DNA of 7,978 bases from a virus (taxonomy: Duplodnaviria > Heunggongvirae > Uroviricota > Caudoviricetes). The stretch covers positions 1-7,978 of IMG/VR virus record IMGVR_UViG_2681813004_000012; one strand, 5' to 3'. A model generated the notes under the pieces. That model was not told the origin of the DNA. It did not search any database and saw nothing but the letters and a program-made list of their open reading frames with translations. Below, in pieces: positions 2,837 to 2,897 of this stretch. How positions within the stretch are numbered: position 1 is the first letter of the stretch; every line of letters begins with the position of its first letter. Position numbers and translations under genes: made by a program.

Positions 2837-2897
2837 GGCATTATGCCTTGAAAGCAATATGCCATCATTGAATATAAATAGCAATATGCCATCATTG
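2837..2897. promoter_or_regulatory. Operator-like repeat array in the divergent arc-ant / mnt-like control region: an 11-bp palindrome and two exact 18-bp direct repeats
   Basis: Palindrome GGCATTATGCC at 2837..2847. Exact direct repeats AGCAATATGCCATCATTG at 2853..2870 and 2880..2897, 27 bp start to start. All three share the core TATGCC. AT-rich -10-like hexamers on both strands (CATAAT on the minus strand inside the palindrome; TTGAAA at 2848..2853 and AATATA/TATAAA at 2871..2879 on the plus strand). Confidence 0.5.

Follow-up and report, generated by a model that had tools for sequence, protein, structure and literature searches.

Three related ribbon-helix-helix operator-like sites in the probable control region of a P22 immI-type antirepressor module in a lambdoid Escherichia coli prophage

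Introduction

Antirepressor modules let a prophage induce itself or its neighbours without an SOS response. Here, we analyzed the control region of such a module in a DNA stretch of 7,978 nucleotides (nt) from a tailed virus (IMG/VR record IMGVR_UViG_2681813004_000012, positions 1 to 7,978), called the window in the following. The region in question is a 61-bp array of repeats in the 102-bp spacer between a leftward open reading frame (ORF) at 2653-2814 and a rightward ORF at 2917-3237, both of which match ribbon-helix-helix (RHH) repressors. An initial annotation, made from the sequence alone, had described the array as operator-like.

The closest described system is the immI region of phage P22, with divergent Mnt-type and Arc-type genes, a small antisense RNA (sar) in the spacer between arc and ant, and an antirepressor, Ant, with a P22_AR_C domain. 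In the annotated P22 record, the promoter Pant has the form TTGACA-17-TATATT, the operator Oarc fills the spacer of this promoter, and the palindrome of the operator Omnt is centred 15 nt past the -10 element. The start of sar adjoins the start codon of ant, with the sar promoter located within ant and the other end of the RNA bordering on arc. This module is the "ant moron" of P22-like phages in Villafane et al. (PMC2629481).

A structural anchor is provided by AmrZ of Pseudomonas aeruginosa, which was crystallized on its amrZ1 site (PDB 3QOQ) as a dimer of dimers on GGC-AAAAC-GCC. Lys18, Val20, and Arg22 read the two 5'-GGC half-sites: Lys18 binds the two guanines, Arg22 the guanine that faces the C, and Val20 is packed against the cytosines. 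Changing GGC to GTC or TTC cuts the affinity about 10- to 13-fold, and a G/C-rich linker also weakens binding (PMC3325190).

Results

Reading of the sequence and a repeat finder agreed that AGCAATATGCCATCATTG occurs at 2853-2870 and again at 2880-2897 (18/18 identical, 27 bp from start to start) and that GGCATTATGCC at 2837-2847 is a palindrome of 5+1+5 bp. The exact repeats and the perfect palindrome of the initial annotation are thereby confirmed, and TATGCC, given there as the common core, is present in all three elements. The repeat finder furthermore paired 2834-2847 with 2877-2890 at 86% identity and returned both repeat cores as imperfect inverted partners of the palindrome. The repeat motif, RGC-W5-GCC, occurs a third time as the palindrome, oriented like the repeats, and the array consists of three co-oriented copies of one pseudo-palindromic site, not of two kinds of element:

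2837-2847: site O1, GGC-ATTAT-GCC, centre 2842; a perfect palindrome, with an extended pseudo-palindrome at 2833-2851
2853-2870: site O2, the first 18-bp repeat; core AGC-AATAT-GCC at 2853-2863, centre 2858; the core overlaps the predicted leftward -10 element
2880-2897: site O3, the second 18-bp repeat; core AGC-AATAT-GCC at 2880-2890, centre 2885

With up to one mismatch, RGCAWTATGCC matches six times in the window (0.71 expected), and the three perfect matches all lie inside 54 bp. O1 is the sole match to GGC-W5-GCC within the window; O2 and O3 have a common 7-bp extension, ATCATTG, which O1 does not have. When the 102-bp spacer was shuffled 20,000 times with dinucleotides preserved, no direct repeat of 18 bp arose, the longest measuring 14 bp. 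Palindromes of at least 11 bp were found in about 25% of such shuffles of this A/T-rich spacer, and the palindrome was dropped as an independent signal; it is meaningful because it copies the repeat core and is conserved in relatives.

The two flanking genes encode the following proteins, and the placement of the array between divergent RHH genes stands:

2653-2814, minus strand: Arc-like RHH repressor gene, 53 amino acids (aa); beta-strand KTTLRYP with contact triad K7-T9-R11; Shine-Dalgarno (SD) sequence AAGGAG, the complement of 2821-2826
2917-3237, plus strand: Mnt-like RHH repressor gene, 106 aa; beta-strand KFVVRFP with contact triad K11-V13-R15; SD sequence GAGGTG at 2906-2911

The 53-aa protein matched PHROG 582 (Arc-like repressor, 1.6e-10) and reached 17.5 bits against Pfam Arc, for which the cut-off is 20.4; its matches to Arc in the PDB were weak, with the strand and both helices aligned. 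For the 106-aa protein, Pfam Arc was matched at 1.6e-19, and the PDB returned AmrZ (6e-9), Mnt (3.2e-6), and Arc (1e-3) with the contact residues aligned: K11, V13, and R15 fall on the AmrZ contacts, on H6, N8, and R10 of Mnt, and on Q9, N11, and R13 of Arc. AmrZ is the best solved relative of the Mnt-like protein, and KFVVR is identical in the strands of both (KFVVRFP versus KFVVRLP in AmrZ). The two proteins also have the conserved GMR and RSMNSEI segments, which contact the DNA backbone. Since K11, V13, and R15 align to the contact residues of AmrZ, O1 would be a textbook site for the Mnt-like protein; O2 and O3 would offer it one perfect triplet each. Lysine and arginine occupy the outer contact positions in both proteins of the window (K-V-R in the Mnt-like and K-T-R in the Arc-like protein).

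The C-terminal half of the Mnt-like protein, which is unrelated to that of P22 Mnt, is probably helical, as judged by its heptad pattern. Among several related loci (L059-L061, L064/L086, L066, L073, and L075), the RHH domain (about residues 1-51) is 79-100% identical despite unrelated C-terminal halves, and total lengths range from 60 to 133 aa. The presumed oligomerisation domain thus appears to be swapped as a module.

RHH proteins are also common as antitoxins and centromere binders, and the array might be the operator of a toxin-antitoxin operon or a ParG-type partition site. The Mnt-like protein does match Pfam FitA-like_RHH (3e-8), and some of the PHROG matches are labelled "partition protein". 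However, P22 mnt itself is annotated in this way, which marks the label as an annotation artefact, and the neighbours of the array are an antirepressor gene and a sar-like RNA (see below). No toxin, ParA, or replication gene is present in the window; with these partners absent, both readings were rejected and are extremely improbable.

Searches with both RHH proteins yielded 110 viral loci, alongside annotated phage records, and a profile search of genomes yielded 26 loci, which suffice for a table of strands and triplets but are too few for statistics. IMG/VR and annotated phages contributed 50 distinct spacers, among which at least five specificity classes are defined by the beta-strand of the Mnt-like protein:

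Class M-A: KFVVRFP (window)
Class M-B: KFNLRFP (L001, Edwardsiella phage GF-2)
Class M-C: RFNIRLP (L055)
Class M-D: KFTVRFP (L093)
Class M-E: KFMLRLP (L065, L079)

Three pseudo-palindromic sites, here named S1, S2, and S3 in related loci, are present in classes M-A, M-C, M-D, and M-E, with centres 16 or 17 bp and 26 or 27 bp apart; in class M-B, the spacing from S1 to S2 is 19-20 bp instead. In the aligned spacers, the -35 element of the arc-ant promoter always falls in the left half of S3 and its -10 element always at the centre of S2, and a T-run and an SD sequence precede the mnt-like gene. A mechanical listing of perfect sites of the form X3-N5-rc(X3) gave the following combinations of contact triad and half-site triplets:

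K-(V/I/T)-R: GGC..GCC (window class, L093/L107, Bosea L139, Devosia L136)
K-M-R: GTC..GAC (L065, L079, L085, and genome loci of Pectobacterium, Duganella, Rhodobacter, and Bosea [L133])
Q-M-R: AGC..GCT (L130)
Q-I-R: ATC..GAT (L128)
R-N-R: ACC..GGT (L055)

Across these loci, the half-site triplets co-vary with the predicted DNA-reading strand of the Mnt-like protein. Within the window's own class, represented by 14 distinct spacers, the GGC or AGC and GCC triplets are invariant except for one change of GCC to GCT in O2, while linker and flanks vary; in O1, GGC and GCC are invariant in all 14. Positions -7 to +9 of O3 are identical in 14/14 spacers, while the matching linker and ATCAT extension of O2 vary. 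The invariance of O3 fits a binding site that coincides with two promoter elements. Since the equivalent extension of O2 varies freely, the ATCAT of O3 would seem to be maintained by a second role, as the putative -10 element of the mnt-like gene, and to lie outside the protein site.

The full 18/18 identity of O2 and O3 is lineage specific, the copies of close relatives differing at up to 4/18 positions. This limitation to one lineage and its close kin, together with the frameshifted tape-measure gene of the prophage, would suit a decaying element in which a 27-bp tandem duplication or a gene conversion had recently occurred without any function. The comparative data largely refute such an event: distant classes of unrelated sequence retain the layout of three sites, as do loci in Alpha-, Beta-, and Gammaproteobacteria, the linkers drift beside conserved triplets, and the genes of the module are all intact. 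We therefore give this explanation hardly any weight. In GF-2, S1 and S2 form an exact 18-bp repeat, and this homogenisation of sites within a phage (O2 = O3 in the window, S1 = S2 in GF-2) fits one reader for all sites.

Two side observations concern the distribution of such arrays. In loci L117-L139 (Pectobacterium, Duganella, Rhodobacter, Rhizobium, Bosea, Devosia, and others), an Mnt-type RHH gene is preceded by two to four palindromic X3-N5-X3 sites; these arrays are widespread in Alpha-, Beta-, and Gammaproteobacteria, a divergent RHH partner is often present, and the first strand residue tracks the first triplet base, K going with G and Q with A. In L072, the stretch that separates the third operator from the mnt-like gene contains several tandem GCTTTATA-like 8-bp units (TTTATAGCTTTATAGCTTGATAGCTTTATAGCTTTATATC), about 30-75 nt upstream of the start of that gene; they are absent from the other loci.

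The following promoters are predicted on the array, the leftward one from reading of the sequence; a promoter scan, which recovered both Pant and Pmnt of P22 as a control, was used alongside:

2856-2884, minus strand: predicted leftward arc-ant (Pant-like) promoter; -35 TTGCTA at 2884-2879, 17-nt spacer, extended -10 TGgCATATT at 2864-2856, start at about 2849
2868-2895, plus strand: rightward mnt-like promoter, candidate a; -35 TTGAAT at 2868-2873, 16-nt spacer, -10 CATCAT at 2890-2895
2848-2878, plus strand: rightward mnt-like promoter, candidate b; -35 TTGAAA at 2848-2853, 19-nt spacer, -10 TATAAA at 2873-2878

The predicted -10 of the arc-ant promoter coincides with the centre of O2 and its predicted -35 with the left half of O3. 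Reading leftward, O1 lies 7 nt past this -10 element and is followed about 20 nt farther by the SD sequence and start codon of the Arc-like gene. Homologues of the leftward promoter in L001 (TTGCCA-17-CATTAT with TG) and L041 (TTGACT-16-TAAATT) are stronger matches than that of the window, and a perfect TTGACA fills the left half of S3 in L065.

For the mnt-like gene, candidate a is the more likely of the two: its TTGA and CATCAT are invariant in the window's class, the -10 CATCAT resembles TATCAT of P22 Pmnt, and its homologue in L041 (TGCACA-17-TACAAT) was called by the scan. Candidate b is placed relative to the leftward promoter as Pmnt is in P22, and a homologue (ATGTCA-17-GATAAT) was called in L065; its 19-nt spacer is long and its -10 element poorly conserved in the window's class. 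Either candidate is overlapped by O2 and O3 and itself overlaps the leftward promoter. The overlap of the array with core promoter elements, as initially proposed, is thus retained for O2 and O3, which cover predicted elements.

This arrangement might mean that the repeat is a set of duplicated promoter hexamers instead of protein sites, given that O2 holds the leftward -10, O3 holds the leftward -35 plus a candidate rightward -10, and the left half of S3 is TTGACA-like in every class. However, there is no reason for a -10 and a -35 element to share 18 bp, and O1 has the motif although it lies downstream of the predicted start. The class-specific triplets are, moreover, palindromic and co-vary with the repressor strand, and the format of the sites equals that of a solved RHH-DNA complex. 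We consider promoter duplication very unlikely.

In position, the array matches immI: O1 is at the place of Omnt, with its centre 14 nt past the predicted -10 (15 nt in P22), and divergent promoters overlap in both systems, as predicted for the window. In P22, one Omnt is combined with one unrelated Oarc (GGTCCAC-G-GTGGACC / TAGA boxes), whereas the window has three copies of one GGC-N5-GCC-type motif. No Oarc-like palindrome was found in the -35/-10 spacer of the window, in which 2859-2879 pairs at 2/10 positions; this absence is the main difference from P22.

Conservation of the layout, co-variation of half-sites with the reading strand, alignment with Pant and Omnt of P22, and structural homology to AmrZ together give good support to an operator-like array on overlapping promoters between two RHH genes. 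We judge it reasonably probable that the array is the control region of a P22 immI-type antirepressor moron with three co-oriented RHH operators of the form triplet-N5-triplet and with the Mnt-like protein as their main reader.

Several points weigh against this assignment. O2 and O3 have AGC and not GGC on one side. The predicted leftward promoter scores 8/12 plus TG, which is under the threshold of the promoter scan, and was not called; the rightward promoter is ambiguous between two candidates. A simple triplet palindrome was tried for the K-N-R class and rejected as not fitting, the sites of this class sharing a TGGCACCA-type 8-mer. For Arc-like proteins with the S-Q-R triad, no motif is common to the two contexts in which they occur, L055 and L065. 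Homology of O157-type phages (loci such as L001) to the window sets in at about 2845, a point that separates O1 from O2. There, another Arc-like class comes together with another left site, TGGTGCCAaagTGACGCCA, a hint that this site might be that of the Arc-like protein. No binding, footprint, or transcript data on the module or its close relatives were found in the literature searched.

Part of this evidence bears on a division of labour as in P22, in which one protein would occupy O1 and the other O2 and O3. The Mnt-like protein might take O1, at the position of Omnt, and the Arc-like protein O2 and O3, or the reverse if each operator travels with its neighbouring gene. A similar idea, derived from a mix of direct and inverted elements, had led the initial annotation to suggest separate sub-sites for the two RHH proteins. 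P22 itself, with its separate Omnt and Oarc, is a precedent, and the extension shared by O2 and O3 sets them apart from O1. The joint of the O157-type phages between O1 and O2 points the same way, as the left site changes with the Arc-like class and S2 and S3 stay with the Mnt-like class. In addition, loci combining a KTTLRYP Arc-like protein with an M-A or M-D Mnt-like protein all have GGC-N5-GCC on the left, GF-2 and L108 (M-B) being exceptions.

Against such a division, the three elements are one motif with the same kind of triplets in one orientation, within each phage the sites share one code, and K and R are at the outer contacts of both proteins. Two proteins with the same contact triad are found in five related classes (L001/L071, L093/L107, L079, L002, and L117), and the entire beta-strand is the same in the Mnt-like and Arc-like proteins of L079 (KFMLRLP) and L002 (PLGIRIP). 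The Arc-like class SFQLRLP occurs with both M-C and M-E, and its two unrelated left sites track the Mnt class, as do all three sites; the left site of GF-2 repeats S2 exactly. The extension varies in S2 and is fixed in S3 alone, which a promoter -10 explains better, and the -35/-10 spacer is without an Oarc-like palindrome. Separate sub-sites are accordingly not borne out by the array, and a division of labour, the main rival reading, appears less likely than a shared reading of all sites.

The joints themselves concern the control region as a whole. In addition to the joint of the O157-type phages, a mosaic joint lies at the start codon of the Arc-like gene in other relatives (window versus L093), and the region is, on these sequence comparisons, a hotspot of mosaic exchange.

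The triplet read by the Arc-like protein (K7-T9-R11) is most likely of the same kind, because Mnt-like proteins of class M-D, which occur with GGC/GTC sites, share its K-T-R triad. As a tentative extension, both repressors may read one operator code, and graded sites (O1 > O2 = O3) might form an ordered RHH switch resembling the right operator (OR) of phage lambda. The strand code of the family would then assign K at the first residue to G, Q to A, and Arg to the C position, with the middle residue tuning the middle base.

The sequences, the identities of the genes, the conserved layout, the co-variation, and the positional match to P22 are shown by the analysis. For the three-operator control region read mainly by the Mnt-like protein, we infer the binding partners of each site, the order of affinities, the use of the promoters, and the regulatory logic as follows. 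Each site is probably bound by a dimer of dimers, as in AmrZ, with each beta-ribbon reading one GGC/GCC triplet and an A/T linker in between. The Mnt-like protein would bind O1 most strongly and O2 and O3 more weakly. Occupancy of O1, at about +3 to +13 of the arc-ant promoter, would block ant as Mnt does at Omnt of P22 and keep ant silent in the lysogen. Occupancy of O2 would cover the arc-ant -10 element and reinforce repression, and occupancy of O3 would cover the arc-ant -35 and the mnt-like -10 elements, so that a high level of repressor would silence the mnt-like gene as well, by autoregulation. Given their overlap, the two promoters could be used only one at a time. The Arc-like protein, made from the ant transcript, would probably shut the operon off after a burst via the same sites, as Arc does in P22, and the sar-like RNA would add translational control of ant.

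The remaining features of the module are as follows:

1667-2581, minus strand: antirepressor gene ant, 304 aa; Pfam Bro-N 3.6e-19 and P22_AR_C 2.3e-26, PHROG 245 (Ant) 4.5e-107
2547-2652, plus strand: sar-like antisense RNA; promoter GTGAAA-17-TG-TATACT at 2547-2575, RNA at about 2583-2652, terminator hairpin and U-run
3228-3245: hairpin terminator bounding the moron on the right, past the mnt-like gene and facing tail gene L
1630-1649: hairpin terminator bounding the moron on the left, between ant and tail gene K

The ant gene is located downstream of the Arc-like gene on the same strand, and all genes of the module are intact. The sar-like RNA lies in the 71-nt arc-ant spacer on the opposite strand and is complementary to the ribosome-binding region of ant. 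Its match to the Rfam sar family (RF00262) spans the full model (2583-2649) with 28.5 bits, compared to a gathering score of 43 (E = 0.018). Its fold is more stable than that of shuffled sequences (z = -4.15), and the stem of its terminator (14 bp) can be aligned to P22 sar, with compensatory changes at 5 pairs (10 sequences). It matches P22 sar in promoter, terminator, position, and strand.

O1-like 11-mers also occur inside ant (minus strand), at 1885-1895 (GGCATTATTCC) and 1907-1917 (GGGATTATGCC), which match O1 at 10/11 positions each and are 22 bp apart; four O1-like matches were counted in ant, versus 0.17 expected. We rejected them as extra operators and regard them as a coding coincidence, as ant alleles from each of the operator classes have them, with synonymous substitutions falling within the motif.

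In the window, the minus strand encodes V-Ig, G, T, H, M, L, K, and I, the tail region of a lambdoid prophage. The insert between tail genes L and K is self-contained, with hairpin terminators on both flanks. At 2600-3260, taken as a test stretch of 661 bp, the window and the chromosome of E. coli PK8241 are 100% identical. Because its gene set, gene order, and geometry equal those of the annotated P22 record, the insert is assigned as a P22 immI-type module, an "ant moron", in a long-tailed lambdoid E. coli prophage. Both are self-contained inserts in a late (structural) operon; the host of the present module differs from P22 in being a lambda-like long-tailed prophage with the insertion between L and K. 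Close relatives of the module are at the same place in many phages of O157 converting for Shiga toxin (Stx) 1 and 2. In the literature searched, the array and the tail-region ant module of Stx phages were undescribed, with gene-level mentions only.

Two further observations concern the prophage and the edge of the module. The tape-measure gene, equivalent to lambda H, is split into ORFs at 4278-4844 and 4940-6838 (minus strand) in different frames, and the PK8241 gene at this position is annotated as "frameshifted"; the prophage may be defective, or a homopolymer sequencing error may be the cause. At 3238-3256, 18 nt after the mnt-like gene (GGATTATGCCCACCGTCA, minus strand) resemble ant-internal 1900-1918 (GGATTATGCCAACCGCTCA), and the O157-type relative L021 has a longer duplicated ant fragment after its mnt-like gene. 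The ant-like fragment is possibly a recombination scar at the edge of the moron.

Discussion

The type of system, the protein fold, and the regulatory logic are already known, and an array is expected at such a locus; as a discovery, the array is modest. Its operator design appears to depart modestly from that of P22, having three copies of one AmrZ-type site in place of two unrelated operators. With AmrZ it shares the KFVVR strand of the reader, the GGC-N5-GCC format with an A/T-rich linker, a predicted dimer of dimers per site, and the presence of more than one site in the repressor's own promoter. AmrZ, however, is a chromosomal global regulator that activates and represses, has neither an Arc-like partner nor an antirepressor, and was crystallized on a site with the linker AAAAC.

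In function only, the array would resemble OR1-OR2-OR3 of lambda, where three related graded sites between the divergent promoters PR and PRM give ordered repression and autoregulation. The lambda sites are bound by the helix-turn-helix proteins CI and Cro, are 17 bp long, and are spaced differently, and the lambda mechanism is experimentally proven. MetJ met-boxes, omega heptads, and CopG likewise combine closely spaced short repeats with reading by a beta-ribbon, with neighbouring dimers 7-9 bp apart. Those arrays are strictly tandem with a period of 7-8 bp, in contrast to the discrete 11-bp sites of the window, which are 16 and 27 bp apart and tied to promoter hexamers.

Given the relatives in many Shiga-toxin phages of E. 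coli O157, the control region bears on the induction of toxin phages. The related loci furthermore constitute a natural swap experiment on RHH specificity, in which the layout is fixed and the triplets change with three strand residues, with the AmrZ structure as an anchor. If true, the strand code would allow the prediction of operators and the design of orthogonal pairs of RHH repressors and operators.

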